Source of the DNA: an uncultured Nanoarchaeota archaeon
Lineage (GTDB): Archaea > Nanobdellota > Nanobdellia > Pacearchaeales > GW2011-AR1
Direction: 5' to 3'
Assembly (NCBI GenBank): GCA_963779925.1
Contig: CAVZZS010000002.1
Span: forward strand, 540 to 64,539
DNA length: 64,000 nt
Below are positions 3,822-41,721 of this stretch, piece after piece. The position numbers were made by a program, and so were the translations under genes. How positions within the stretch are numbered: position 1 is the stretch's first letter; each line of letters begins with the position of its first letter. Under the pieces are notes generated by a model, which did no database searches, was not told where the DNA came from, and was given only the letters and a program-made list of their open reading frames with translations.

Positions 3822-5572
3822 CTACTCCATAGGTTGGCCGCCCATCCTGCCTCTTCCAGTTTGTCTTTGTCCGCCTAATTCAGAAGGAAGCGTTGAAAAT
3901 CCAGAGCCGAATGTTTCATAATTAATCTGCGGAAGCATTTGTCCATAACCGCTGAAATATCCTTCACTGCCGACTGCTTGATTCCAGTATGGCTGCATTT
4001 TTATTCCATAAATAGGAGAGCCGAAAGCTTCCAGAGTCTGCTGGAAAGGAGAAGTTTTGAAATGCTCCCACCAATTTCCTGCCTCAATGACTTTTCTTGC
4101 TTCGAATCCTTTCTGGCCTAGCTTTTCCATAATCTGCTTGATTGGAACATTACCCATGCCCATCGGCAATTCTGTATGCTCAAATCCGAAATTATCAGAA
4201 AGATGAACATGCTTGACAAGGGGGGCGATTTTCTCAGCTTCTTTTATGACATCTTCTTCAGTATAGCCATATTTTCTAAGCATGTTAATATGCCCGACAT
4301 CCCATGTAACCCCAATTAATTTGTTCGCCTGATTTCGAGCATCTTTCTCTGAGATTCCTTCTTTTTTTGCCAAATCAACAAATTTGTTTCTTGCAGATTC
4401 AACCAAGTTCTTCAAATCTTCAGCTCTCGAAAGCCCGCCCCCTACAGGAGGGTTTTCTATGCTGATTATCGGTGCATTCTCCTTGAATTTCCTATAAGAA
4501 CTAAATGCAACATTTGCAAAAGTTGTAGCTGTTTTATCGACGGCAAAATCTTCAACAGGCTTATAAATCTCAGGTGCAGGCAAGGAATTAAGATCCCTCA
4601 TCAATAAATCCATCGCTCTTGATTGCCCTGACAAATCTTTTACATTGCCGAGAGCTTCTCTGAACTCTTTTGAGATATTGACTAATTCTTTTTGATTATT
4701 TTCATTGCTGAACTTATATGCTTTTTCGAATAATCCCGAAAGATGCTTGTGAATCTCATTTAATTCAAGGTGGGCATTATTGTATCTGTTAGCCACATCT
4801 CTCTCAGTTGGTGTTAAGCTTTCATACTTAGCTCCTTGTTCTATTTTCTTCTGGATTTCACTGAATATAGGCTCAGTCTCATTAATCATCCTGTCCGCTC
4901 TTTCTTTTATTGCAACAAGATTTGTTATTGAATCGCTCCATTCTGTCCTGTTTTTCACGCCAATCTGCGTCTCTGCGCTTACTTTCTCTCCTTTTCTTAA
5001 TTCTTCTTCATTCATTTCAGGATAATACCTCTGTTCTGTCTGGACAAGAGCTATTTGCCCGGACTCTTGATTTATTATCGGGAGTTTTATTTTTTCTTGG
5101 CCTTCTTTCAATCTTTTATATTCTGGCCCCTGCCAAGTCACAGAAGAATGGAAAGTTACAGGGATATTTCCATTAGGGCCCATTTCATGGCTCTTTTCAA
5201 CTGCAGACTGCATCTGCCTTTCTGCTTCTTCTCTTGCTATCTCACTGTATACCCCTTGCTCGAAATTCCAGACGGCTCTACTAATGGCGCGTGAACAGAA
5301 ATATCAATGCCGGTCAATTCGCTCAATCTTTTTACTTCTTTTAATTGCTGAGTTGGAATTGATTCGAAAACATTGGGCTGAATTGTCGAAACTTCGATCT
5401 GCCTTGCTCCTGACTGCAACTTTGTCGAAACTTCCTGGAGAATATTTGCGGTTCTTGGATCCGTAGCCATGCCAATTTTTCCAGCAGAAATTCTGTATCC
5501 TGTAAAGCCGGAATTTGGATCTAATGTAGAATATCCCCCCTGGTAAATATCTTCAAGATGATAGTCGTCCAT
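3822..5572 (-). pseudogene. Xylose-isomerase-like/AP-endonuclease-2-type TIM-barrel protein with a large helical insertion, split by a frame change near 5262-5285
   Basis: The upstream ORF (5237-5572) ends ...GIDISVHAPLVEPSGISSKGYTVR*. The downstream frame is open from 5303 and reads ...AVWNFEQGVYSEIAREEAERQMQSAVE..., continuing to VTWDVGHINML...HVHLSDNFGFEHTELPMGMGNVP. Together the two parts form one TIM-barrel family protein. Confidence 0.6.
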
Positions 5573-5618: not shown

Positions 5619-6050
5619 TTATTGATTTGGCGGATGTTCAGATGAATCTGAAGGCAATTCTTTGTCGGCATAGTCATTAGGCGTTTTTTCCCCATATTTG
5701 TTCCCTGTATAATTAGTTTCATATTTTGTCTCGGAATAATTCTTTCCTTCCTTGTCTTTATTGTTCTTTATTCTCGGCGCAAATGCCAAACCACCCTCAA
5801 GGGAGCTGCCCATAGGAATATTCTCAAGATTACGCCTCGATGAAGGATTTAATCTGAATCCCTCTGAAAATTCAATATCTCCAAAATCATCTTCCTCGTC
5901 TGAATCATTCTTCGGCTGCTCTTTGCTCTTGATTTCTTCAAATCTCTTTTTCTTCTCGAGAATAATTAATTTTTTTGAATGAGAAACTTTAGAATTACTT
6001 CTTGGTTTTTTGCCTTTTTTAGTCAGTATCTTTTTCATATCGATAATCAA
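5619..6050 (-). CDS. Hypothetical low-complexity (K/E/D/N-rich, probably disordered) protein
   Basis: Its start overlaps the upstream gene's stop by 4 nt (6047-6050), which suggests translational coupling. Confidence 0.45.
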   Translation of the reverse strand: MIIDMKKILTKKGKKPRSNSKVSHSKKLIILEKKKRFEEIKSKEQPKNDSDEEDDFGDIEFSEGFRLNPSSRRNLENIPMGSSLEGGLAFAPRIKNNKDKEGKNYSETKYETNYTGNKYGEKTPNDYADKELPSDSSEHPPNQ

Positions 6051-23625: not shown

Positions 23626-23668
23626 CTGTAGTAATATACAGAGGTTAGATATACAAGATATTGTATAT
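23626..23668. promoter_or_regulatory. Two palindromes upstream of nrdR; the proximal one is an NrdR-box-like operator
   Basis: 23649-23668 atatacaa-gata-ttgtatat has perfect 8-nt arms. Its core CAAGATATTG resembles the NrdR-box core CwAtATaTwG. 23626-23641 ctgta-gtaata-tacag. Both lie within 55 nt of ATG 23679. Confidence 0.5.
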
Positions 23669-23678
23669 CATCAAATAC

Positions 23679-24113
23679 ATGAAGTGCCCACATTGTTCGC
23701 ATGAGGAGTCAAGGGTTACGAATAAACGAGAGTCTCCTAATGGAATTCGTAGGCGAAGAGAGTGTCTGAAGTGCAAGAAGAGATTCACAACATATGAAAA
23801 AACAGAGAAAGAGGATTTTTATGTTGTAAAAAAAGACGGGCGCCGGGAGAAATTCAGCAGAGAAAAACTCGAACACGGAATTGAAAAGGCATTTGAGAAG
23901 CGCCCTGTTTCAAAGGAGAAAATTGACAAAATGATAAACGAAATTGAAGATCAGCTGAGAAAAAGAGGAAAAGAGGTGAAGAGTTCTATTATTGGCGAAC
24001 TTACCATGAAGAAAATAAAGAAGCTTGATCATGTTGCTTACATCAGATTTGCTTCTGTATACAGAGATTTCCAGGATATAAAAGACTTTAAGGAGGAATT
24101 GAAAGAATTGTAA
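23679..24113 (+). CDS. nrdR: Transcriptional repressor NrdR (zinc ribbon + ATP-cone)
   Basis: MKCPHCSHEESRVTNKR......RRRRECLKCKKRFTTYE followed by an ATP-cone (VVKKDGRREKFSREKL...). The real start is ATG 23679, not the track's TTG at 23661. Confidence 0.85.
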   Translation: MKCPHCSHEESRVTNKRESPNGIRRRRECLKCKKRFTTYEKTEKEDFYVVKKDGRREKFSREKLEHGIEKAFEKRPVSKEKIDKMINEIEDQLRKRGKEVKSSIIGELTMKKIKKLDHVAYIRFASVYRDFQDIKDFKEELKEL

Positions 24114-24114
24114 G

Positions 24115-27100
24115 ATGCCCGCAACACTGGAAGCAAAATTTGAACCTCGATATAGGACAGTTTCATTAAGTGATGATCCCCGAAAATATTCTCCAATTGA
24201 AAGAGAGTCTTATGATAAAGATAAACATATATTAGTCGAAGATGCAAAAACTTTGGTTGAGAACCAAAAGGATTCACAACTGGAGGTCCAAAGATTAACT
24301 GATGCAATAACTTCTGGAGATATAAGAGTCTATGAATTTGATGGCCAGAAATATTTGGATAGAACAGATATTGGAAGGATTTATCATCAGACAAGAGAGA
24401 AAACAGGACTAAGTGTTGAAAGATATTTCACAACCTCGGGGGAAGATCCATTTGAATCTGTAACATATACCCCTCGGCATTTGGAAATTAAAGAGTTCAA
24501 AACAGGAAAGGTTGTCTTTGAAATGGACGGGGCAGAAATTCCCGACTGGATGAATGAAACCGAAGCTTCTATTGTTGCATCCAAATATTTTTTCCGGCCT
24601 AAAAAAGAAAAATGGAAAGAAAAATTGAAACATTCAATCGGTTCTGATCATGAATATTCTTTAAAGCAGCTCAATAAAAGGGTTGCAGATTTCTTCACAG
24701 AAGAAGGATGGAAACTTGGATATTTCAAAACAGAAGCAGACAGGGAAAATTTCAGGAATGAATTATACTTCTTGCAGATAAATGGATTTGGTGCATTTAA
24801 TTCTCCGACCCAGTTTAATGCCGGATTATTTAATTCATATGGAATTTCCGGAAACAATGGAATAAATTATTACAAGGATCCCGAAACCGGAGAGGTAAAG
24901 AAAGTAATGAATGGAGAATATATTCATCCTCAACTGCATGCTTGCTTCATTAAAGGCCCTAATGATGATCTTGAAAGCATAGCGCAAAACTTAGTTGATG
25001 AAGTCGCAATCTTTTCATCCGGGTCCGGCATAGGCCATGACATTGGAAAATTAAGAGGAGAAGGAGAATACTTATCTGGAGGCGGGAAATCTTCTGGCTC
25101 GATGAGTTTTTTAAAAGTCACCGACCGGGGAGCGGGCGCTATAAAATCAGGCGGAAAAACAAGGAGAGCAGCAAGAATGGCAACTATGAGGTATCAACAT
25201 CCAGACATTATGAGTTTCATCCGAGATAAAGTTCAGGAAGACAGAAAGGCCTTAATTTTAATGCAAAATGGTTTCAGCACAGGAATGGATGGAGAAGCAT
25301 ATACCACTGTCGCATTGCAAAATACAAATCTTTCAGTCAGATTAGATGATAAGTTTTTTGAAACATTAAAAGCAGGAGGAGAAGTCCAAACATATAATGT
25401 TAAAGATGGAAAACCCTCCAAAAAAATATCTGCAGAACGGATGCTTCAGGAAATTGCTTTTGGAAGCTGGAGAATCGGAGATCCTGCAGTTCAATATGAA
25501 GACAAGATTCAAGAGATGCATGTTGCAAAGAATTCCGGAAGAATAAACTCTTCAAATCCCTGTTCTGAATATATGTTCCTTGATGATACTTCTTGCAGCC
25601 TGTATTCTATGAGACTAACCGCTTTCATGAATGAAGATGGAACATTTAACGCAGTGGATTTCAGAAAGGCTCTAAGAGTTTTCACAATAGCACAAAATAT
25701 CGCCAATAAAAGTGCATCATATCCTGTTAGAGAAGTTGCAGTAATTAGCCCCGAATATGCAACAATCGGCGGAGGCTATGCAGATCTGGGGTCTTTGCTA
25801 ATGAGAAGCGGCATTCCTTATGACTCTGAAAAAGGGAGAGCAACTGCGGCAGCCATAACTTCTTTATTAACCGGAACTATTTATGAAACCTCTGCTGAAA
25901 TTGCAGGAGCATTAGGATCTTTCACGCATTTTGAATTTAATAAAAAACCAATGATGGAAGTCATGGAAAAGCACAGGCAAAATCTTGAAGATATCTCATG
26001 GGGAGAAATTGGTGATGATGCATTAAAAGGCGCGGCCTATCAATCATGGGAGCAGGCTATTGCACTTGGAGAACAATTTGGATATAGCAATGCACAAGCA
26101 TCGGTCATTGCTCCTACAGGAACAATATCTTTTTTAATGGGATGCAGCACTACGAGCGGAGAACCTGCAATGGCTCTTAGCATTACAAAGAATCTTGCCG
26201 GCGGAGGAAATATTACAATCGCTAATAAAGACGTGGAAATTGCCCTCAAAAAATTAGGATACAGCCATGAGCAAATTGTAGATATATCGAAATATATTGG
26301 AAAAGAAATTGCACCATATACTCCTAGAGGCACAATTATCAACGCCCCTCATGTCAGGCCAGAACATTATGCCATATTCAATACTGCATTTGGAAATTCC
26401 AAAGGAGAGGGAAGCATAGACTTTGAAGGACATGTTAAAATGTTAGGAGCAACACAGCCATTTATTTCAGGCGCAATTTCAAAAACAAATAATCTCCCTG
26501 AAAGTGCAACAGTTAAGGATATTTATGACGGTTACTTGCTTGGAAGTGAATTAGGATTGAAAGCCATCTCAATTTTCAGGAACAATAGCAAACCAATATC
26601 AGCTGTTGATTTCGGTGGCAAAAGCTATGTCAAATTGAAAAGAGGAGAAAAAGAAGATCTGCCGGGAAGAAGATCTGGTTTTGAAACAGAAGTCCGCATG
26701 GGAGAACACTCTTTCCATGTTATTTCAAGCGATTATCTTGATGGCAAACCTGGGCAAATAACTTTCTTAAGTTACAAATCGGGTTCAACTCTCGGAGCAC
26801 ACTTCTCTAGCGCGGGCGTCTCTGCTTCAAAATCCCTTAAAAGAGGAGTAAGCTTGGAAGATGTGACTGAAGGCTGGCTTGGACAACAGTTTGAGCCTCA
26901 TGGGCTTGTTCAGGGACACCCTTTCATCAAAACAGCAAGTTCCCCTCTTGACTTCGCAGCAAAAGTATTGAGGTTGGAATATCTAGGAGATTTAGATATG
27001 GTCGAACCAGAATTACGAAGCAAAGTCAATCTAAGAGACCTATGGGGTGCAAAAAATGGAGCTTTCAGAACTTATAAGAGAATGAAAATTGACGAATGGA

Positions 27101-27306
27101 GCTTTGAAGATGTAATGAAAGATGCTGAAACAGGCGGATTTGTTGAAGGTACTGAAGAATTCAATGGAAACGGAAATGGCAATGGAAGCAGAAAAAATTC
27201 CAGGGGAGTAACTTGCAATTCATGCGGGAATTTAATGAGACCAACAGGGCCAAATTGCTTTTCATGTGATAATTGCGGGGACAAGGTTGGTGGCTGCGGA
27301 GCTTAA
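24115..27306 (+). CDS. nrdJ: Class II (adenosylcobalamin-dependent) ribonucleotide reductase NrdJ with an N-terminal extension and a Cys-rich C-terminal tail
   Basis: ASKYFF...LHACFI...SSGSGIGHDIGKLRGEGE...GG.SSGSMSFLKV.D......SGGKTRRAA.M...HPDI..FI; NPCSEYMFLDDTSCSLYS (active-site Cys-Glu). C-terminal CNSCGN...CFSCDNCGDKVGGCGA. Confidence 0.9.
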   Translation: MPATLEAKFEPRYRTVSLSDDPRKYSPIERESYDKDKHILVEDAKTLVENQKDSQLEVQRLTDAITSGDIRVYEFDGQKYLDRTDIGRIYHQTREKTGLSVERYFTTSGEDPFESVTYTPRHLEIKEFKTGKVVFEMDGAEIPDWMNETEASIVASKYFFRPKKEKWKEKLKHSIGSDHEYSLKQLNKRVADFFTEEGWKLGYFKTEADRENFRNELYFLQINGFGAFNSPTQFNAGLFNSYGISGNNGINYYKDPETGEVKKVMNGEYIHPQLHACFIKGPNDDLESIAQNLVDEVAIFSSGSGIGHDIGKLRGEGEYLSGGGKSSGSMSFLKVTDRGAGAIKSGGKTRRAARMATMRYQHPDIMSFIRDKVQEDRKALILMQNGFSTGMDGEAYTTVALQNTNLSVRLDDKFFETLKAGGEVQTYNVKDGKPSKKISAERMLQEIAFGSWRIGDPAVQYEDKIQEMHVAKNSGRINSSNPCSEYMFLDDTSCSLYSMRLTAFMNEDGTFNAVDFRKALRVFTIAQNIANKSASYPVREVAVISPEYATIGGGYADLGSLLMRSGIPYDSEKGRATAAAITSLLTGTIYETSAEIAGALGSFTHFEFNKKPMMEVMEKHRQNLEDISWGEIGDDALKGAAYQSWEQAIALGEQFGYSNAQASVIAPTGTISFLMGCSTTSGEPAMALSITKNLAGGGNITIANKDVEIALKKLGYSHEQIVDISKYIGKEIAPYTPRGTIINAPHVRPEHYAIFNTAFGNSKGEGSIDFEGHVKMLGATQPFISGAISKTNNLPESATVKDIYDGYLLGSELGLKAISIFRNNSKPISAVDFGGKSYVKLKRGEKEDLPGRRSGFETEVRMGEHSFHVISSDYLDGKPGQITFLSYKSGSTLGAHFSSAGVSASKSLKRGVSLEDVTEGWLGQQFEPHGLVQGHPFIKTASSPLDFAAKVLRLEYLGDLDMVEPELRSKVNLRDLWGAKNGAFRTYKRMKIDEWSFEDVMKDAETGGFVEGTEEFNGNGNGNGSRKNSRGVTCNSCGNLMRPTGPNCFSCDNCGDKVGGCGA

Positions 27307-29526: not shown

Positions 29527-29733
29527 ATGCACATCCTTCAACCCAAACACATTAAGCTTAATCAAAAAGAATCTGAAGACCTTCTCTCTAGATTAAATGT
29601 CTCAAAAGCACAGCTGCCAAAGATTTTATCGACGGATCCAATATTGCCGGAAGGATGCAATGTCGGCGACATCATAAAAATCGAAAGAAAAGACGGCGAA
29701 AAAACCGAGGCTTATTTTAGAGTTGTTGTTTAG
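29527..29733 (+). CDS. rpoH: RNA polymerase subunit H (Rpo5)
   Basis: 68 aa. HILQPKHIKLNQKESEDLLSRLNVSKAQLPKILSTDPI....G..GDIIKIER is the typical RpoH pattern. Confidence 0.9.
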   Translation: MHILQPKHIKLNQKESEDLLSRLNVSKAQLPKILSTDPILPEGCNVGDIIKIERKDGEKTEAYFRVVV

Positions 29734-29761: not shown

Positions 29762-32700
29762 ATGGAAAAAAATAACCATCTAATAGTCAAAAGATACCTG
29801 CAAGAGCACTCTCTTGTTGCATCTAACATAACTTCATTCAATGATTTTATTGAAAGAAGAATGCAGGAAATCACGGAGGAAATCTCCAAGTCAATTGAAA
29901 AAGGGGAATTTGATATTTCTTTGGGAAGAATAAAGGTCGGAAGACCTAATATTGTTGAAGCTGATGGAAGCTCTTCACTGATAATGCCTTATGAGGCAAG
30001 ACTTAGAAACTTGACTTATTCTGCCCCTGTTTTTGTCGAATTGACTGTTAGGCATGAAGACCAGGTTGATTCTGAAACGGTAGAAATCGGAAGAATTCCA
30101 GCAATGGTAAAAAGCGATATTTGCAATACAAATGGGCTATCAAAGGAAGATCTGATAAAAAATTATGAAGACCCATTGGATCCCGGAGGATATTTTATTA
30201 TCAACGGAAATGAAAGAGTCATGGTAATGGCAGAGGATCTTGCAGAGAATCAGCCATTTATTGAAACAAACAAGAGCGGAGAACTGACATTAAGACTTTT
30301 CTCTTTGAGAGGAACATACAGAATTCCTATCTTGATTTCTGAAAGCAAAGATGGAGTTTTGAACACTTCATTCAGCAGATTCAGGGATATACCCTCTGTT
30401 GTTCTGCTAAAGGCACTTGGGCTGGTAAAAGAATCTGACATTGCAAAGTACATCGGAATAGAAACTGATGATATTATCGTCAATCTCTACGAGTATGTCA
30501 ATATTGCAACAAAAGAAGATGCTATGATGTTTATCGCTGAAAAAACAAATCTTCAGGGAACAAAGAAAGAAATTTTGGACAGAGTAAAGCAAAGAATTGA
30601 TTCATTCTTATTCCCCCACATAGGGCAAGATAAGGAAGACCGATTAAAGAAAGCGGTAACACTTTGCAAGCTCATAAAACAATTCTTGATTGCCAAAGGA
30701 AACCCTAATCTCAGAACTTACAAAGACCATTATGCAAACAAGAGAGTCAGACTTTCAGGGGATTTGCTTTCAAGCCTGTTCAGGGTCAATCTTGGAATTC
30801 TTATAAGAGATATCCAGTATTCTCTGCAAAAATCCATGAAGAGAAAAAAGTTTTCTTCATTGAAGGTTATTTCCAAATCCACTTTATTTTCACACAGGGT
30901 TGAATCTGCAATCGCGACAGGAAGCTGGGTAGGCGAAAGAAGCGGAATTACCCAGAACATGGATAAAACAAATTATCTTGCAATAATTTCCCAGCTGCAA
31001 AGAGTTTCAAGCATGCTTCCAAGCGAGCAGGAAAATTTCATGGCAAGAACCTTGGATCCAACGCATTATGGAAGATTCTGCCCTATAGAAACTCCTGAAG
31101 GAACTGAAATCGGATTGAGAAAAAATCTCGCTATCTTGAGCAAAGTCTCCACAAGAGTAAATATCGATGAGGCTGCATTCATCAAAGAGCTTGAAAAAGA
31201 AGGCCTTAATGTCGAAGAAAGCGAAGGAACAGAAGTTTTCTTCAACGGCGTATTTATAGGAAACATAAAGAATCATCATGAATTTGTAAATAGTATAAGA
31301 GAAAAAAGAAGATCCGGAAAATTGCCTCTTCAGATGAACATAAGGGATTATACGGATTTCAGAGTAGTAATGATTTCTACCGAACCCGGAAGAGTTCTAA
31401 GACCACTGATAATCGCTGACAACGGAGTCTCCAGATTAACTGATTCCCATATGATCCAGTTAGAACAAGGAGAATTAAGCTGGAATGATTTGACTGCAAA
31501 AGGAATTATCGAATATCTTGATGCAGCAGAAGAAGAAAATGCTTTAGTCGCTGTCAGAAAAGAAGATCTTGACCAGCAGCACACTCATCTCGAAATTGAT
31601 TCTATGGACTTGTTCGGAGTTGTAACAAGCCTTGTACCTTATGGAAATCACAATCAAAGTTCCAGATTGAATAGGGGAAGTAAAACGCAAAAGCAGGCCC
31701 TTGGAATCTATGCCGCAAATTATCTTGCAAGAATCGATACAGACGTTTCTATCCTTCAATATCCGCAAAAGCCAATCGTGCGAAGCTTTGTTTATGATAC
31801 CCTGAACACTTATCCTGCAGGACAGAATTTGGTTGTCGCTATCATGACACATGATGGCTATAACATGGAAGATGCTCTCGTATTCAACAAGGGAAGCGTG
31901 GACAGAGGGGTTGGAAGAAGCTTTTTCTTCAGGCCATACTCCGCAGTCGAGATGAATTATTCGGGCGGATTAAAGGACGAGATTGCAATTCCTGAAAAAG
32001 ACGCTTCAGGATATAAGATGGAATCAAGCTACAGATATCTTGAGAATGACGGAGTTGTTTATCCGGAAGCTGATATTAATGAAGGAGAAGTATTGATAGG
32101 AAAGATGTCTCCTCCTAAATTCTTGTCTGAAGCTAGAGAGATTTCAGTTAAGACAAAGAAAGAATCTTCCGTAACAATGAGGCAGGAAGAGAAAGGAATA
32201 GTCGAGGCTGTTTTCGTAACCGAGGATTCCGAAGGAAATAAGATTGTCCAAGTCAAGACACGTGATCCAAGAATCCCTGAACTCGGGGATAAATTCGCAA
32301 CATCACACGGACAGAAAGGAGTTATCGGAGCAATTATTCCTGAAGAGGATATACCATTCACATCAAGAGGAATAAGGCCAGATGTCATTTTCAACCCTCA
32401 CGGACTTCCAAGCAGAATGACTGTCGGATATTTGATGGAATTGCTCGCAGGAAAAGTCGGATGCCTTAGAGGAGAAGTTGTTGACGGAACCCCATTCTCA
32501 GGAGAAAGCAAGGGTGAATTGGAAACTCAGCTTAAAAAATTAGGATTCAGATTTGACGGAAAAGAAACAATGTACAATGGAGTAACCGGAAAGAAATTTG
32601 ACATAAAGATTTTCGTCGGAGACCTATACTACTTGAAATTAAAGTACATGGTTGGAAATAAGATACATGCAAGAGCTTCCGGAAAGATAGCTTTGCTAAC

Positions 32701-33016
32701 GAGACAGCCTGTCGAGGGAAGATCAAAGGGCGGAGCTTTAAGATTGGGAGAGATGGAACAGGAAGCTTTGGTTGCGCATGGTGCAGCCCTATTATTGAAA
32801 GAAAGATATGATTCAGATAAGATTGTTTTGAACATCTGCACAAGATGCGGCTCAATTGCAATCGAAGACAATATCAGAAATAAGATTGTCTGCCCTATCT
32901 GTGGAAGTGAAGAAGCGGAGCCAGTAGAAATTTCATATGCATTCAAGCTTTTGCTGGAAGAACTTCAGGGATTACATATTCACACTAAATTCGGCTTAAA
33001 AAACAAATACGAATAA
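29762..33016 (+). CDS. rpoB: RNA polymerase subunit B (Rpo2), unsplit
   Basis: 1084 aa. [69 protein letters not shown], and the C-terminal zinc ribbon CTRCG...CPICG. Confidence 0.95.
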
Positions 33017-33017
33017 A

Positions 33018-35705
33018 ATGATACCAATAGTAAGAAAGAAAGTTGATGAAATAAAGTTTACTTTATTCAATCCGGAAGAGATCAAGAAAATTTCAGCTGC
33101 AAAGATAGTCACGCCTGAACTCTATGATATTGATGGATACCCTGTTGATGGGGGATTAATGGATTTAAGATTAGGAGCTATAGATCCTGGTGTAAGATGC
33201 AGAACCTGCGGCGGAAGATTAAAAGAATGCTTAGGGCACCCTGGAAGAATTGAATTGGCAAGATCGGTAATTCATTTGAAATATGTCCCTTTGATTGAAA
33301 TGGGATTAAGATGCTTCTGCCACAAATGCGGTAAACTATTAATTGAAGAGAAGAATATGAGCAAATATTCGCAAAGCGAGAGAGCTAAAAAAGCAAAGGA
33401 TGTAAAGAAATGCCCTTACTGCGGTGCAGACCATGAAAAAGTAAAAGTCGACAAACCTACAAATTTCTATATTGGCAAGAAAAGATTATTCCCCACAGTA
33501 GTAAGGGAAATGCTTGAGAATATTCCAAATGAAGAGCTGAAAAAAATAGGAGTCGATCCTTTAGGCGCAAGACCTGAATGGGCAATATTAACTTATCTTC
33601 TTGTTCCTCCCGTAACTGTCCGTCCAAGTATTATCCTTGAAAGCGGAGAAAGAAGCGAAGATGATTTAACACACAAACTCTCTGATATTATAAGAGCAAA
33701 CCAAAGATTATGGGAAAATCTGAATGCCGGAGCTCCTGAAGTTATTATTGAAGATTTATGGGACTTATTGCAATTCCATGTTACAACTTTCTTCGATAAT
33801 ACAGTATCAAGAATCCCACCTGCAAGGCATAGAAGCGGCCAGCCATTAAAAACAATCACTGAAAGAATCAAAGGAAAAGAAGGAAGAATAAGAAAGAACC
33901 TCGCCGGAAAGAGAGTAAATTATTCTGCAAGAACAGTAATCTCACCAGACCCATATATTGACATTAATGAAATAGGAATCCCTTTCAGCATTGCAAAAGT
34001 CATCACTGTTGCAGAAACTGTAAACGATTTGAATATTGACAATCTGAAAAAATTAATTGCAAAAGGCGAAGAATATCCAGGAGCAAATTATGTAATAAGA
34101 CCTGATGGAAAGAGAAAGAAAGTAACGCCAGAATTAAAGGATGAAATAATCAATGAAGTCATTCCAGGATATAAAGTTGAAAGACATCTTCAGGACGGAG
34201 ACGTGGTCTTATTCAACAGACATCCAAGCCTTCACAAGGGAAGCCTTATGGCCCACTTTGTAAGAGTTCTGCCCGGAAGAACGTTCAGATTGCATCCTGC
34301 TGCTGTAACCCCTTACAACGCTGATTTTGATGGGGATGAAATGAATATACACTCTCCTCAGACAGAAGAAGCAAGGGCAGAGGCAAGAATCTTGCTTGAC
34401 GTCAAGAAAAATTTAATTTCTCCAAAGAATAACACTAATTTAATCGGATGCACGGGCGACGCTGTTACTGGAAATTATCTATTAAGCCTTGGAGAATACC
34501 CAAAAGATTTCGCGGATGATTTGCTTTACAAATGCGGAATCACCAATGGGATAACAACAAAAAGAATCTCTGGCGCAGATGTTCTATCTCACGTACTGCC
34601 AAAAGGCATCAATTTCAAGAATGATTCTGTAGACATTAAAGATGGAAAAATAGTCAAGGGAGTAATTGACAGGACAATATTCAGCGATGAAGACGGGGAG
34701 CTCATAAAAGTTCTAGATAAAGAATTTGGAAGAGATGTGACTTTCAATACAATTAGGATGGCTTATGCCCTTGGAACAAAATATCTGACAAATAAGGGAA
34801 TTACAATTTCCGTCGGTGATTTGAATGTCAACAAAAAAGTTCTTGATGAGAAAGACAAGATCATAAAAGCCGCAGAGAAAAAAACAGAAGAAGTTATAGA
34901 ATCATACAATAACCGATCTCTCGAAGTCATTCCTGGAAAGACAAGGGAAGAATCAAGAGAATTGAAGATTCTTCAGATACTTAATGAAGTCAGATCAAAA
35001 ATCAGCGAAGTCGTCAAGGAAGAATTCCCTGAGGAAAATCCTATTTCATATATGATCAAATCTGGAAGCGGCGGAAACATTTTGAACATCACTCAGATGG
35101 CCTGTTCTGTAGGCCAGCAGGATCTTGAAGGAAAAAGAATTGATATAGGATACAATGACAGAACTATGTCTTTCTTCAAGAGAGGAGATTTATCTCCAAA
35201 AGCAAGAGGGTTCATCAACAGTTCATTCATGGAAGGACTAAAGCCAGAAGAATTCTTTTTCCAGGCTATGACAGGAAGATCCTCACTTATGGATACCGCA
35301 TTAAGAACTCCTAAATCCGGATATTTGTACAGAAGACTTGCAAGCGCATTGCAAGATTTAAGGCAGGAATATGACGGAACAATAAGAAACAGCAATGGAA
35401 ACATAATACAATATGAATATGGCGGAGACGGAATAGACGTTTCAAAGCTTCATCTCAACGGAAAACTTGAACCCGGAGAAGCAATAGGAATCGTAACAGC
35501 ACAATCATTCGGAGAGCCTTCAACGCAGATGGTCTTGAGAACATTCCACTTCGCAGGAGTCTCTGAAATGCAGGTCACGCAAGGGCTTCCAAGATTAATC
35601 GAAATCTTTGATGCAAGAAAAAAGCCAACATCTCCTAAGATGGAGATTTATTTGGGCAAAGATTTCAACAATGAAAAAGATGAAGAGTTCTTGCAGAGAA
35701 GATAA
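33018..35705 (+). CDS. rpoA1: RNA polymerase subunit A' (Rpo1N) extended through the canonical A'/A'' junction to include the trigger-loop segment
   Basis: [64 protein letters not shown]. The C-terminus has [48 protein letters not shown]...[13 protein letters not shown], which normally opens subunit A''. Confidence 0.9.
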
Positions 35706-35743
35706 AGGAAGTCAAAATAGAAGAAATCTCTTCAGAGGTCAAG

Positions 35744-36478
35744 TTGAACTTCAGCGACAAGGTCATAGAAATTATCCTTGACAAGGAAAGACTGAAGCAT
35801 GTCCATATTACAGCAGATAAGGTAAAGGAGAAGTTAAGAGACCTTGGACACAAGGTAAAGGAAAAGGGAGAATCAGTCATCATTGACGCTTCTGCATTAA
35901 ATTTCAGGGAAATTTACCAGATCAAAGAGAAACTCAAGAGAACAATAATTTCCGGAATAAAGAATGTCAGCCAGATTTTAATTGTCAAGAGAGGAAAAGA
36001 TTATGTAATAATCACTCTGGGAACCAATCTTAAGGAAATAATAAACCTCAAAGAAGTCGACGTCAGCAGAACAGTTTCAAATGACCCTTATGAAGTTGCA
36101 GATGTATTCGGAATTGAAGCAGCAAGACAGCTGATAATAAATGAAATCCACGAAGTCCTGAACAATCAGGGACTAGATATAGACATAAGACACTTGAAGT
36201 TGGTCTCAGACGCTATGACTAACACCGGCGTTGTTTCAGGCGTTACAAGAATGGGAATTATCTCGCAAAAATCTTCTATATTGGCAAGAGCAACTTTCGA
36301 AACTCCTGTAAAGCAATTTGTTAATGCGACAATAAAGGGGAACAAGGATAAACTGGCTAGCGTTGTGGAGAACATTATTCTAAATCAGCCTGTTCCTGTC
36401 GGTACTGGCCTTCCAGGATTGCTCGTAAAAGTTACAGGGCCTTTGACAAAAGAGGGTAAAGGTAAGGATAAGAAATAA
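35744..36478 (+). CDS. rpoA2: Remainder of RNA polymerase subunit A'' (Rpo1C), in a different frame from the upstream rpoA ORF
   Basis: The frame is open from 35684 ([20 protein letters not shown]...). The first conventional start is TTG 35744. It contains SNDPYEVADVFGIEAARQLIINEI..VL..QGLDIDIRHLKLVSDAMT.TG and GVTRMGI...SSILARATFE. Confidence 0.8.
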   Translation: MNFSDKVIEIILDKERLKHVHITADKVKEKLRDLGHKVKEKGESVIIDASALNFREIYQIKEKLKRTIISGIKNVSQILIVKRGKDYVIITLGTNLKEIINLKEVDVSRTVSNDPYEVADVFGIEAARQLIINEIHEVLNNQGLDIDIRHLKLVSDAMTNTGVVSGVTRMGIISQKSSILARATFETPVKQFVNATIKGNKDKLASVVENIILNQPVPVGTGLPGLLVKVTGPLTKEGKGKDKK

Positions 36479-36505
36479 AAAGACCCCTTAACAAATATTC
36501 ATCTA

Positions 36506-36922
36506 ATGGAAAATACGATAAGCATGCAGGATATGAGACATCTCAACTTATTCAGAAATGTTACAAGGATAAGCACGACAATCTGCTTCGAGTATAACGA
36601 TACGATATTCTTCGGCGTTCCCAGGAATCTTATTTCAACAGCAATAGGAGAAAATGGGAAGAATTCAAAGGAATTAAACAGGATTCTTGGAAAAAAGATC
36701 AAAGTCATTTTTGTTCCCAATGGGATGGGAGATTCAAGGGAATTCATCCAGGCAATAATCTATCCTGTCGAATTCAAGAACATTGAAGTCCAGGGTAATG
36801 AGATGATAATCCATGCCGGGGCGAAAAACAAGGCTGCATTAATCGGAAGAGAAAAAAGAAGGCTTCTTGAGATGAAGACAATAGTAAGAAATTTCTTCGG
36901 CAAGGAATTGAGGATTGTGTAA
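36506..36922 (+). CDS. nusA: Archaeal NusA-like protein (two KH domains)
   Basis: 138 aa. FGVPRNLISTAIGENGKNSKELNRILGKKIKVI and AALIGREKRRLLEMKTIV are GxxG KH motifs. It occupies the conserved position before S12. Confidence 0.85.
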   Translation: MENTISMQDMRHLNLFRNVTRISTTICFEYNDTIFFGVPRNLISTAIGENGKNSKELNRILGKKIKVIFVPNGMGDSREFIQAIIYPVEFKNIEVQGNEMIIHAGAKNKAALIGREKRRLLEMKTIVRNFFGKELRIV

Positions 36923-36970
36923 TCCAGAAAGTTTTAAAAACTAATTTTTGTAAAGATAAAATATAACAAG

Positions 36971-37393
36971 ATGGGACAAAAGAACGCAAGAAAATTTGTC
37001 AAAAACAGAAAAAAATTCAGATGGAATGACAAGGAATACAGAGCAAGAGCTATGAAACTTTACCAGAAATCCGATCCATTAGAAGGAGCAAGCCAGGCAA
37101 AAGGAATCGTCTTATCTAAATTCCAAAAAGAAGCAAGACAGCCAAATTCTGCTATGAGAAAATGCTGCAGAGTTCAGCTTACAAAGAACGGAATCGGTGT
37201 CGGTGCATTCATACCCGGAAACTTAGCACAAAGATTCATTGATGAACATGATGAAGTTATAATTGAAAGAATCGGCGGACGTTCAGGACGACAAAAAGGA
37301 GATATCCCAGGAATCAGATTCCAAGTAATTAAAGTAAATGACCAGCCTTTGGAAAGATTATGGCTCGGCAAGATAGAAAAGGGTAGAAGATAA
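36971..37393 (+). CDS. rps12: Ribosomal protein uS12
   Basis: [14 protein letters not shown]......[20 protein letters not shown]....AFIPG... Confidence 0.95.
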
Positions 37394-37599
37394 TGATAGT
37401 ACTAGAAAAAAAATTACCACGAGATGGAAAACGTGTTGCAATTGTCGCAGATGAAAGCGGAAGAGACAAATACAACATATTAACATATCCTTGCAATTTT
37501 GAAGACATTGGAAAGCCAATCGATTTCAGCAAAGCAGAAGCTTATTTTCCAACGATGGTAGAATTATCAAAAGTTATGGGGGTATATCAATTCTCATAA
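37393..37599 (+). CDS. Hypothetical 68-aa protein inserted between S12 and S7
   Basis: Both junctions are TAATG overlaps: the stop of S12 with its own start, and its own stop with the start of S7. No recognisable motif. Confidence 0.5.
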   Translation: MIVLEKKLPRDGKRVAIVADESGRDKYNILTYPCNFEDIGKPIDFSKAEAYFPTMVELSKVMGVYQFS

Positions 37600-38210
37600 T
37601 GGCACAAAGAAATATTCCACAATTCAAAATATTCGACAAATATGACTTAAATGGACTCCAAGTAAAAGATCCCGGATTAAAACCAGTCATTTCTCTTGAG
37701 CCAAGATTAATCCTCAAAAGCCAAGGAGCTAATTTCCAGAGATTCATGCAGACAAAAGTAAACATTGTTGAAAGATTAATGAACAGGCTTGCAGTTGCAG
37801 GACATCGAGGCAAAAAGCATAAAATACAGAAAGGGCGTTCTACTGGAAAATATTCAAAGAATATGAAAATAATTCTTGAGGCTCTTGATGCAATCGAGAA
37901 AAAGACTAGCAAGAATCCAGTTGAAGTTTTGATAAAGGCAGTAGAGAATTCTGCACCAAGAGATGAAATCACAGTTATTGAATATGGCGGAGCAAGATAT
38001 CCCCAAGCTGTTGATGTCGCTCCGATAAGAAGAGTTAATCTTGCAATAAGATGGCTTGTCCATGGCGCTTCCGATAAAGCATTCAACAAGAAAAAAACAA
38101 TTGCTCAAGGATTGACCGATGAAATTATATTAGCTTCTGAAAATAATGGCGATAGTTTCGCAGTAAGAAAGAGGAATGAATCTGAAAAGCAAGCGGATTC
38201 TGCCAGATAA
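37599..38210 (+). CDS. rps7: Ribosomal protein uS7
   Basis: IVERLMNRL.VAGHRGKKH.......GKYSKNMKI...A......KT.KNPVEVL..AVEN.APR.E........GGARYPQAVDV.P.RR is the S7 pattern. Confidence 0.95.
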   Translation: MAQRNIPQFKIFDKYDLNGLQVKDPGLKPVISLEPRLILKSQGANFQRFMQTKVNIVERLMNRLAVAGHRGKKHKIQKGRSTGKYSKNMKIILEALDAIEKKTSKNPVEVLIKAVENSAPRDEITVIEYGGARYPQAVDVAPIRRVNLAIRWLVHGASDKAFNKKKTIAQGLTDEIILASENNGDSFAVRKRNESEKQADSAR

Positions 38211-38212
38211 AA

Positions 38213-38665
38213 TTATTTTAATTTAACTACCAAAGAACTATTTCTCGAGCCTTTTTCATAAAGGTTATGCCCATAGGGATATAATTTTACAGGAGTAATA
38301 TCTTCAGGCTGTCTTTTCTTTATCTTGTTTATTCTTTCTAACTCTTCCGGCCTAAGAGTAGGAAAGTAGGATTCTTCCAGATTAGACACCAAAGATTCCA
38401 GTTTCTTTTCATTAAAGTCGAAAAAGACCAGTTGGAGAGGAAGTGGCAATCTATCAACATTTTCAACTTCCCCCATAGAATATAACAACCTCAGAATTGA
38501 AACGCATACTCCAAAATGATATTTCTGAAGATTCAAGCTGCTGTTCTTATAAATGAGTTCGTGGGGAGACGCATTTTCCAATGTCGCCCTGCTGACTAAT
38601 CCTTCAATATATTCTTTTCTAGCATCTTCATATAACTCCGAAACCGGTTCAAAAGATAATTGCAT
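38213..38665 (-). CDS. Hypothetical protein (150 aa)
   Basis: ORF with a TATA-like octamer at 38687-38694 at the canonical spacing. Confidence 0.45.
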   Translation of the reverse strand: MQLSFEPVSELYEDARKEYIEGLVSRATLENASPHELIYKNSSLNLQKYHFGVCVSILRLLYSMGEVENVDRLPLPLQLVFFDFNEKKLESLVSNLEESYFPTLRPEELERINKIKKRQPEDITPVKLYPYGHNLYEKGSRNSSLVVKLK

Positions 38666-38741
38666 TAGTAGACTATTAAAAATTGCTTTATAATATTTTA
38701 TTTATACAAAACCATATAAATCAGCTCTCGGGTTTATGATA

Positions 38742-39005
38742 ATGGAGATATTATACCGCGAAAAAAAGAGAGATTTCTATAATTTCAAAAAATATTCAGC
38801 AATTTTCTTGGATGTGGGAAGCGCTTCTATGATTGCCATGGGCATAATAACAAATAACACTGATTTGGGTGTCGTTGGCAGCTGTATTGAATTCGCATCT
38901 CTATTTTATTCAGTTGGCCTTATATTAGAGCGGACAAAAATCAAGAAAGATAAGAGAGTAAATGATATAACACGCTTCCTTGAAAATCAAGTATTATTTG
39001 AATAA
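38742..39005 (+). CDS. Hypothetical small membrane protein
   Basis: Two hydrophobic segments. The second ATG (38742) fits the catataaa octamer at 38713-38720. Confidence 0.4.
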   Translation: MEILYREKKRDFYNFKKYSAIFLDVGSASMIAMGIITNNTDLGVVGSCIEFASLFYSVGLILERTKIKKDKRVNDITRFLENQVLFE

Positions 39006-39085
39006 TTCCTTATTTCCAATAACATTTAAAAACTATTTTTACAAACTTTTATTATTCTCGATAACTAGAGTAATCGTAACAACAA

Positions 39086-41278
39086 ATGGCAGAAAAAGAA
39101 TCGCAATTTCACAAGATTGAAAGAATCAGCAGGAATCAAAAAAACATCAGAAATATAGCGACAAGCGCGCACATTCATCACGGAAAAACAGCTTTGACAG
39201 ATAATCTTCTTGCAGCTTCAGGATACATGGCTTCAAAAAATGCCGGAAATCTCGAAGAGGGAATGACCACATGGCAGCATGCAGATGAACAGGAGAGATT
39301 AATGACTGTTGATGCAGCTAATGTTTCTATGGTACATGATTTCCAAGGCGAAGAATATTTGATTAATTTAATTGATACTCCTGGGCACGTAGATTTTGGC
39401 GGAAATGTTACAAGGGCAATGCGAGCAATTGATGGAACTATCGTTCTGGTCTGTGCAGTTGAAGGAATCATGCCGCAAACTGAAACTGTTATCAAGCAGG
39501 CATTAAGAGAAAGAGTTCGTCCTGTTCTATTCATCAACAAAGTTGACAGATTAATCAAAGAGATGAAATTGACTCCTGAGGGGATGCAGCAAAGATTCGT
39601 AAAAATAATTGAAGAATTCAATGATTTGATTTACAAAATCGCAGAGCCGGAATTCAAAAACAAATGGGCTGTAAGCATCAGCGACGGAAGCGTTGCATTC
39701 GGAAGCGCAAAAGCAAACTGGGCGTTGTCTGTTCCATTTATGAAAAAGAAAGGAATCACATTCAAAGATATTTTCACCTTGGAAACATTGGGCGAAGCTG
39801 AAAAGAAAGAATGGGTTTGGAAAAATGCACCATTGTATGAAGTTCTTCTTGATATGGCTGTAAAGCATCTTCCTGATCCTCTTGAAGCTCAAAAGTACAG
39901 AATTCCAAAAATCTGGCGTGGAGATATGGACAGCCAATTTGGAAAAGATTTATTGAGCTGCAATCCCAACGGAAAAATCGGATTTGTTATTACAAGAATT
40001 GTAATTGACCAGCGTTCAGGAAAAGAAATTTCAGCAGGCAGACTGTTCTCGGGAACTTTGAAAAATGGCATGGAAGTTCATCTTAATCTTGCAAATAAAG
40101 AACAAAAAGTTCAGCAAATTCTAGTTTACAACGGAATTAAACCAGAACAAATCAGTGAAATCGGCCCGGGAAATGTTCTTGCAATCTCGGGAGTTACAGG
40201 AGAAGCTGGAGAAACAGTCACATTAGAACCTGAGACACCTTTTGAAGAATTGAAGCATATTTTTGAGCCTGTTGTTACAAAATCCATTGAAGTAAAGAAA
40301 TTGATGGACTTGCCAAAATTAATTGAAATTCTAAAACAGGTTGGAAAGGAAGATCCTTCCGTTAAAGTCGAAATCAATGAACAGACTGGCGAGTCTCTTA
40401 TTTCAGGAATGGGAGAATTGCATCTTGAAATTATTGAAAACAGAATAAGAACTGAAAAAGGATTGGATGTAAAGACTTCGCCTCCAATTGTTGTTTATAG
40501 GGAAACTGCAAATAAAGAATCTCCTGAAGTTGAAGGAAGAAGCCCAAACAAGCATAATAGCTTCTTCATTAGAGTTGAACCTCTTGAAGATGATGTTTAT
40601 GAAGCAATCAAGAGCGGTGAAATCCCTGAAGGAAGAGTCAAGAAAAAATCACAGGAACTTACGACCAGATTCGCAAGGTTTGAAAACTGGAGCAATGACG
40701 AAATCAAGCAGATAAGGGACATTTACAAAGGAAACATCCTCGTCGATGAAACGAAAGGAGAAGTTCATATCGGAGAGGTTATTGAAATGGTCCTGGATGC
40801 ATTTGAAATGGTAATGGACCAGGGTCCTCTCGCGAGGGAGCCATGTGTCAAGATGAAAATTGCACTTGAAGATATCAAGCTTCATGAAGATGCAATCCAT
40901 AGAGGTCCTGCTCAGGTTTATCCTGCGGTAAGAGAAGCAATAACCGAAGCTATGAAAAAGGCAGATGCTTCCTTGCTTGAGCCGATACAGATTCATGTTA
41001 TAGAATGCCCAGACAAATTCTTGGGAGAAATGACAAAACTTTTGGGAAGCAAAAGAGGGCAATTAATCAATGTTTCACAGGAAGATTTCGGAGTCGAAAT
41101 AAAAGCAGAGATACCTGTTTCTGAAATGATCGGGTGGAGCAATGACCTGCGTTCTGCAACTGAAGGAAGAGGAACATCTTCTTTGTCAGACCAGCTGTTC
41201 AAGAGAATACCAATGAGCATGCAAGCTGATGTCATAAGAAAAATCAGAGAAAGAAAAGGATTAGCAGAGAATCAATAA
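39086..41278 (+). CDS. fusA: Translation elongation factor 2 (aEF-2)
   Basis: G1 AHIHHGKTALTD, G3 DTPGHVDF, G4 NKVDR, and the diphthamide-site HEDAIHRGPAQ. 730 aa. Confidence 0.95.
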   Translation: MAEKESQFHKIERISRNQKNIRNIATSAHIHHGKTALTDNLLAASGYMASKNAGNLEEGMTTWQHADEQERLMTVDAANVSMVHDFQGEEYLINLIDTPGHVDFGGNVTRAMRAIDGTIVLVCAVEGIMPQTETVIKQALRERVRPVLFINKVDRLIKEMKLTPEGMQQRFVKIIEEFNDLIYKIAEPEFKNKWAVSISDGSVAFGSAKANWALSVPFMKKKGITFKDIFTLETLGEAEKKEWVWKNAPLYEVLLDMAVKHLPDPLEAQKYRIPKIWRGDMDSQFGKDLLSCNPNGKIGFVITRIVIDQRSGKEISAGRLFSGTLKNGMEVHLNLANKEQKVQQILVYNGIKPEQISEIGPGNVLAISGVTGEAGETVTLEPETPFEELKHIFEPVVTKSIEVKKLMDLPKLIEILKQVGKEDPSVKVEINEQTGESLISGMGELHLEIIENRIRTEKGLDVKTSPPIVVYRETANKESPEVEGRSPNKHNSFFIRVEPLEDDVYEAIKSGEIPEGRVKKKSQELTTRFARFENWSNDEIKQIRDIYKGNILVDETKGEVHIGEVIEMVLDAFEMVMDQGPLAREPCVKMKIALEDIKLHEDAIHRGPAQVYPAVREAITEAMKKADASLLEPIQIHVIECPDKFLGEMTKLLGSKRGQLINVSQEDFGVEIKAEIPVSEMIGWSNDLRSATEGRGTSSLSDQLFKRIPMSMQADVIRKIRERKGLAENQ

Positions 41279-41299
41279 AGAGATTTACTATTCACAACT

Positions 41300-41307
41300 T
41301 TTATAAA
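41300..41307 (+). promoter_or_regulatory. TATA box (tttataaa) 22-29 nt upstream of ATG 41329
   Basis: Exact octamer at the canonical spacing, inside the EF-2/EF-1alpha spacer. Confidence 0.55.
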
Positions 41308-41328
41308 ACAATTTTTAGGTTAATTTTT

Positions 41329-41721
41329 ATGGAACAAACAGAATTACTCGTAAAGGCGATGGATATGATTGACGTCCCTTTGCACCTTGCAGGAAATGGC
41401 CGTCGTAATTTAAAAGAAAGATTGCCAGAAATAGTAGAACATCTTGTTCTAGAAAGTCTAGGGACCCAAGGAAATTCGTGGGTTGAAGAAAGCGTTCGCT
41501 TATTAAGACCGACATGCTATGAAGATAGTCCTCTTTATCGAGATAATATGGCCCAAGTTTACGTAAATGTTGGGGAAATTTATGATTTCATTATGTCAAA
41601 AGGCGGAAAGGAAACAGAGAATACAAGAAGATTCAGAGGATATGTCTGGATGTACCAAAAGGCTACCGCACATTTGGGGACTAAAGGCATCTGCAAAGAT
41701 GATGCACCAAAACATTTTTAA
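41329..41721 (+). CDS. Hypothetical 130-aa protein between EF-2 and EF-1alpha
   Basis: ORF with its own canonical promoter octamer. No motif recognised. Confidence 0.5.
   Translation: MEQTELLVKAMDMIDVPLHLAGNGRRNLKERLPEIVEHLVLESLGTQGNSWVEESVRLLRPTCYEDSPLYRDNMAQVYVNVGEIYDFIMSKGGKETENTRRFRGYVWMYQKATAHLGTKGICKDDAPKHF

Follow-up and report, generated by a model that had tools for sequence, protein, structure and literature searches.

Da Cunha et al. (2017, PLoS Genet; PMC5484517) distinguish, in their passages on rpoA, the A′A″-type polymerases of Euryarchaeota and Crenarchaeota from the A-type polymerases of Thaumarchaeota and Korarchaeota, and for the same gene they report “a secondary fusion in Pacearchaeota.” The thaumarchaeal gene is likewise described as unsplit in a second source (PMC4084955). 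In those passages of Da Cunha et al., the split or fused state of rpoA is a rare-event character by which the archaeal tree has been rooted, and a truly new split position would therefore matter. The original prediction for rpoA in the window, by which we mean the whole 64,000-nt stretch of DNA analyzed here, raised the prospect of such a position. It described an ORF that reads through the canonical A′/A″ junction and breaks off downstream, with the homologous continuation in the −1 frame, and it left two readings, both of which it considered unusual: a single missing nucleotide that conceals an RpoA of roughly 1150 aa without any split, or a split relocated to a new site. The unsplit gene is in fact the norm for the clade, was published in 2017, and has counterparts in Thaumarchaeota and Korarchaeota; because Da Cunha et al. 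report the Pacearchaeota fusion in their treatment of rpoA, the fused state seen here is already known. We favor, at a probability of roughly 0.8, a fused Pacearchaeota-type rpoA of about 1150 aa with a 1-nt deletion confined to this contig, involving neither an evolved relocation of the split nor recoding.

The two reading frames together encode RNA polymerase's largest subunit (the Rpo1/RpoA/Rpb1 family), as domain content and operon context both indicate. Pfam assigns Rpb1 domains 1 to 4 and positions 1–139 of the 267 in domain 5 to ORF1, and positions 150–266 of domain 5 to the −1-frame ORF; domains 1 to 5 thus occur in order across both frames, and all scores are far above the gathering scores. 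Against solved structures, the C-terminal 200 residues of ORF1 align with Sulfolobus Rpo1N/A′ at 745–855 of 880 and also with Rpo1C/A″ at 57–136 of 395, while the −1-frame ORF matches Rpo1C 140–389. The break falls at about residue 137–139 of Rpo1C, 82 codons downstream of the canonical junction, close to the 80 or so originally estimated. The gene keeps its place in the archaeal operon order rpoH-rpoB-rpoA-nusA-S12 (rpsL)-S7 (rpsG)-EF2 (fusA) (Table 1).

Table 1. Coordinates of rpoA, its internal features, and its operon neighbors in the window
Feature	Position	Strand	Description
rpoH	29527-29733	+	Upstream, intact
rpoB, unsplit	29762-33016	+	1084 aa; upstream, intact
rpoA ORF1	33018-35705	+	895 aa; Rpb1 domains 1-4, then domain 5 in its first half
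Linker LNGK	35454-35465	+	4 residues, between ...DVSKLH (A′-like) and LEPGEAIG (A″-like)
Trigger-loop segment EPGEA...TFHFAG...GLPRLIEI	35466-35650	+	Wholly in ORF1; aligned to yeast Rpb1 1053-1123 and Rpo1C 57-130
TGA	35681-35683	+	Product of the deletion itself (GAT GCA to GATGA)
1-nt deletion site	35682-35683	+	GATG-AAGAG in the window, GATGC(A/G)A(G/A)A in the six closest aligned relatives
Out-of-frame ORF1 tail EEFLQRR		+	7 codons, then TAA at 35703-35705
rpoA continuation, −1 frame	35684-36478	+	264 codons and stop; jaw region and C-terminal part
GAGGT-CAAG-TTG	35735-35746	+	Shine-Dalgarno-like match of 5 nt, with a 4-nt spacer to the initial NTG of the −1 frame
Downstream operon genes	36506-38210	+	NusA-like KH protein, ribosomal protein S12, 68-aa ORF, S7; all intact

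Within ORF1, the reading frame is continuous through the canonical A′/A″ junction. The window lacks the stop of A′ and the start of A″ that canonically lie some 55 residues upstream of EPGEA, and relative to Sulfolobus there is no counterpart here for the C-terminal ∼25 aa of A′ (about 856–880) or the N-terminal ∼55 aa of A″ (1 to about 56). The linker at this point is short and variable in relatives as well, reading LNGK, LGGK, TEGK, LKDGK, and others, with a length of 4 to 5 residues. The ORF list and the sequence agree with the original prediction on the 895-aa ORF, its 4-residue linker, and its stop at 35703–35705, and the canonical split had been placed correctly, since the EPGEA...TFHFAG segment belongs to A″/Rpo1C in solved archaeal RNA polymerases. 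Two details need correction. The peptide IIQYE at the end of A′, which had been placed from position 35418, starts at 35403, with 35418 being the Y of YGGDG; and the segment described as the first half of the trigger loop spans, by its alignment to yeast Rpb1, the whole loop, which comprises residues of about 1070 to 1100, including His1085, in Rpb1 numbering.

In the window sequence as given, rpoA is not a single uninterrupted ORF, being broken by a 1-nt deletion. The DNA alignment contains a single gap, where the window lacks 1 nt that all six of the closest aligned relatives have; it falls inside a conserved Ala codon (GCA or GCG), and the missing base is a C, the second base of that codon, between 35682 and 35683. 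In protein alignments, close relatives read NNEKD-A-R[VI]LAEKIKEV, and the window reads NNEKD followed by EEFLQRR and a stop. The TGA at 35681–35683 closes the −1 frame, whose positions are congruent to 2 mod 3, on its upstream side; the deletion itself creates this codon, which is why the −1 frame had seemed open only from 35684. Translation confirms both this limit and TTG 35744 as the first ATG, GTG, or TTG of the frame. The missing base had been sought in 35684–35702, the 19 nt over which ORF1 and the −1 frame overlap, and lies instead at the boundary just given. Insertion of one C yields a protein of 1153 aa with no internal stop, which is 94.3% identical to, and colinear with, that of the nearest relative (L007), with one gap, and which aligns in a single stretch to Sulfolobus Rpo1C 57–389. 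Over the 60 nt from 35684 to 35743, every difference between the window and L007 falls at a first or third codon position in the −1 frame, and all changes are synonymous or exchange I for V or S for A, a substitution pattern indicating that the segment evolved as coding sequence.

Relatives of the window share the fusion and lack the break. When proteins were searched with a conceptual query spanning the junction, the search retrieved DPANN proteins labelled Nanoarchaeota or Pacearchaeota, which align uninterrupted over 98 to 100% of the query. Scans of species-representative genomes and metagenome contigs gave 51 loci, to which we compared a conceptual 1154-aa protein by tblastn with a check for in-frame stops; removal of duplicates left 42 distinct relatives, labelled Pacearchaeota or Woesearchaeota and 61 to 94% identical in amino acid sequence. 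Each relative gave one high-scoring pair in a single frame with no in-frame stop, apart from the lesions in L009 and L022. A complete single ORF of about 1140 to 1170 aa is present in 26 of the 42, another 14 are cut by a contig end only and are otherwise uninterrupted, and the remaining 2 (L009 and L022) carry private lesions elsewhere in the gene. The nearest relatives, MAGs labelled Pacearchaeota, Woesearchaeota, or Nanoarchaeota, share a single-ORF architecture of about 1150 aa, that of a fused, A-type rpoA, and the clade with this architecture is broad, with 42 or more distinct lineages here. Wherever a relative extends over the canonical junction, its frame continues through, apart from L022, which has a frameshift of its own there, and an ordinary stop and start at the junction was found in none. 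Among the 40 relatives that cover the break site of the window, none is interrupted at that site. Thus, alignment to Rpo1N/Rpo1C and to relatives of the lineage, by which the original prediction was to be judged, finds the fusion across the junction conserved and the break not conserved. Of its two readings, the missing nucleotide is the one that the single-ORF relatives, the 1-nt gap, and the restored 1153 aa bear out, and relocation of the split is left without support from conservation.

Several other candidates for split genes proved to be of a different nature. L022 has the appearance of a canonical split in a close relative, with products of 813 aa and 352 aa and an ATGA overlap, and the cause is its own 1-nt deletion 25 nt upstream; the Met at which its A″ would start is an in-frame residue common to the intact relatives L005 and L006. 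One-base deletions can therefore mimic canonical splits, in this case with the ATGA overlap exactly at the canonical junction. In L009, a deletion of ∼70 nt removes the conserved PPVTVRP motif, and the gap is clearly an assembly or deletion artefact. Proteins of 460 to 800 aa annotated as A″, the longest among the matches listed in the first protein search, could be taken for the products of splits farther upstream and are fragments or cluster representatives; the fragments begin at internal Met codons on short contigs, and the cluster representatives hide full-length members. Short frameshifted rpoA fragments also occur on long ENA contigs at positions scattered along the gene. Sporadic rpoA lesions are therefore common in such assemblies, which counts in favor of the reading preferred here.

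The deletion in the window is most likely a consensus or assembly (sequencing) error, or else a minority or very recent strain variant, and what the organism makes is most likely a normal RpoA in a single chain. We found the deletion in one contig only, which is 67,931 nt long and present in NCBI and ENA, and neither the 895-aa nor the 244-aa product occurs on any other. Exact-protein look-ups with ORF1, ORF2, the NusA-like protein, and rpoB found no other assembly of the same strain in the contig index; a DNA pattern in which the base at the deletion site was optional had no match in metagenomes, and no same-strain fragment emerged from a third protein search, which focused on the break. Look-ups with S12 and S7 led to short contigs only, all ending before rpoA. 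One of these, the Logan contig L054 of run ERR11571142, matches the window at 100% identity over 4307 nt (37243–41549) and ends 1.5 kb downstream of the site; this run contains the same strain as the window. ERZ19039273, with an identical S12 protein encoded on DNA that is 94% identical, appears to represent this species or a near relative. Homopolymers are where indel errors are most common. The deletion lies outside any homopolymer, and none of the other large genes checked in the window is disrupted, suspicious pairs of adjacent ORFs all being distinct genes by Pfam; with these genes intact, the assembly is not generally indel-prone. Both observations count against an artefact.

The favored reading may be put as a sequence of steps. 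In the Pacearchaeota-type DPANN clade from which the window comes, one fused rpoA gene encodes the largest RNA polymerase subunit as a chain of about 1150 aa, in which a linker of 4 to 5 residues has replaced the canonical A′/A″ junction with the loss of about 80 flanking residues. In this contig, the C is missing from the conserved Ala codon, and the resulting frame shift gives ORF1 its nonsense tail of 7 codons and its TAA, whereas the other 264 codons stay intact in the −1 frame. The intact gene would give the junction peptide DFNNEKDARVLAEK.

An unlikely but not negligible alternative is that the deletion is fixed in the strain and that a secondarily fused Pacearchaeota rpoA has recently been split de novo after the trigger loop. 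Two chains would then be made, one of 895 aa ending in EEFLQRR and one of 244 aa starting at TTG 35744, with the N-terminus MNFSDKVIEI, (M)NFSDKVIEIILDK, and the two would assemble in the manner of A′ and A″. Translation from TTG might be aided by the GAGGT motif or occur by reinitiation 38 nt after the stop, at the cost of 20 residues of the jaw region. The position of the deletion outside a homopolymer and the integrity of the other genes checked are both in keeping with such an event, as are the natural splits that other lineages have in the largest subunit, at several positions, according to the passages on splits in Da Cunha et al. (PMC5484517). Where the downstream frame has its first NTG, the GAGGT-CAAG-TTG arrangement is also suggestive, in that the combination of GAGGT and TTG recurs at none of about 49 related loci, with the codon being Ile in nearly all, and in that a Shine-Dalgarno match of at least 5 nt precedes just 1.9% of internal NTG codons in the genes of the window. 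However, matches of at least 4 nt precede 13 to 15% of annotated starts in this window against a background of 14%, and this lack of enrichment means that the GAGGT motif carries little weight; moreover, ATG accounts for 52 of the 56 listed gene starts in the window, and many of these genes look leaderless. GAGGT and TTG arose through an Ile-to-Val replacement and through TTA to TTG, which is synonymous for Leu; both changes amount to ordinary drift of coding sequence, and the analysis of start motifs was post hoc. Conservation in relatives extends to the 20 codons that a re-split would forfeit, and these codons retain the coding substitution pattern described above. Weighed with the uninterrupted state of all 40 relatives at the site, these points argue against two functional chains. 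If the re-split were true, the locus would be a snapshot of how splits of RNA polymerase subunits arise by frameshift and start-site capture.

More improbable still is a true pseudogene, in which rpoA would be inactive because another copy exists elsewhere in the genome or because the DNA derives from a dying variant. A frameshift in an essential gene would be in line with this reading, and the 64 kb of the window is the portion of the genome that can be seen. However, the 264 codons downstream of the lesion contain no further stop or indel and are 94% identical to L007, and the gene sits in its normal rpoH-rpoB-rpoA-nusA-S12-S7-EF2 operon. Duplicate rpoA genes are not known from genomes so reduced. 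Finally, programmed −1 ribosomal frameshifting or another form of recoding that joins the two frames, for which the sole support is their 19-nt overlap with both halves intact, is rejected with near certainty: inspection of 35684–35702 finds no X XXY YYZ heptamer, as the original prediction also noted, the only run of A (35674–35678) lies upstream of the TGA in the −1 frame such that a slip there would end translation immediately, no relative has the frameshift although programmed frameshift sites are conserved, and one missing base of a conserved codon explains the lesion exactly.

With a fused Pacearchaeota-type gene and a single-base lesion as the preferred reading, no new split position arises here; what the locus presents is the published Pacearchaeota fusion plus a lesion in one contig, and its novelty is nil, save for the small residual chance of a real strain-level re-split. 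For annotation, rpoA in this contig should be treated as frameshifted or pseudo, and its 895-aa and 244-aa products are unsuitable as A′ and A″. Compared with canonical Rpo1N/Rpo1C (Sulfolobus 2WAQ and Thermococcus 4QIW), the protein belongs to the same family, the operon context is the same, and all domains align; unlike the canonical pair, which has a stop and start at the junction, the window has none there, and its protein lacks about 80 of the junction-flanking residues of Sulfolobus A′ plus A″. The alternative split sites of cyanobacterial rpoC1/rpoC2 and of Mimiviridae, as treated in the passages on splits in PMC5484517, indicate that the subunit tolerates cuts elsewhere, as a relocated split would require. 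Those splits are conserved within their clades and have proper starts, whereas the break in the window is present in one contig only. The rpoA of Thaumarchaeota and Korarchaeota, and also of Bathyarchaeota and some Asgard archaea, is likewise a single gene for the largest subunit in archaea. These genes are regarded as primarily unsplit, in contrast to the Pacearchaeota form, which the rpoA passages of PMC5484517 treat as a secondary fusion. It is this last form that the window most closely resembles: like the fused rpoA of Pacearchaeota described there, the gene runs as one ORF across the A′/A″ junction in a small-genome DPANN archaeon, and the copy in the window differs from it by an extra 1-nt deletion 82 codons past that junction.

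Scoring the largest RNA polymerase subunit gene (rpoA) as split or fused is open to a trap of the kind seen in the related operon locus L022. One nucleotide is deleted there (within 5960-6004), and 25 nt further downstream lies an in-frame Met codon; the deletion creates an ATGA stop/start overlap located exactly at the canonical A′/A″ junction. Gene callers therefore give an A′ of 813 aa and an A″ of 352 aa, a pair that looks plausible. A second relative, L009, lacks about 70 nt of rpoA (4540-4570), encoding ...[25 protein letters not shown]..., and its frame shifts; this loss probably reflects mis-assembly of the groundwater metagenome-assembled genome (MAG).

No match in the first protein search exceeded 804 aa, despite the existence of full-length fused RpoA proteins, and in at least one case the full-length protein was masked by its cluster representative: the 1154-aa database protein P0223 is concealed in a 90% cluster represented by the truncated 895-aa product of the window. 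The “A″” matches in the protein searches were mostly fragments beginning at internal Met codons. Several contigs (L001, L021) and database proteins (P0008, P0085, P0246) with this archaeal rpoA bear the names of bacterial MAGs (Omnitrophota, Proteobacteria, Bacteroidetes), and such labels suggest mis-binning. L021, labeled Patescibacteria, is a distant match only, at 25-43% identity.

Features of the window outside rpoA
Feature	Position	Strand	Context
68-aa ORF	37393-37599	+	Exactly between S12 and S7; both genes abut its start/stop
NrdR-like gene and class II ribonucleotide reductase	23661-27306	+	NrdR-like gene directly upstream

Elsewhere in the operon, the 68-aa ORF has no Pfam match on record. 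In the locus comparison, its identity was 66% in both L007, the nearest relative, and L024, 77% in L053, and 100% in L054, a short contig identical to the window; L022 lacks the ORF and has S12 next to S7. Across the window, many genes have a TAAAT/TTAAT-like box some 20-25 nt before their ATG, suggesting leaderless mRNAs. Annotated starts window-wide were no richer in Shine-Dalgarno matches than internal NTG codons.

The NrdR-like protein, with a predicted TTG start, combines a Zn-ribbon with an ATP-cone, and the adjoining reductase is 1063 aa long; NrdR is a regulator found mostly in bacteria. Gene order after rpoA also departs from that of many archaea, in which rpl30e lies between rpoA and the NusA-like gene: in the window (36478-36506), as in L022, the gene for the NusA-like KH protein follows rpoA directly, with no intervening rpl30e.
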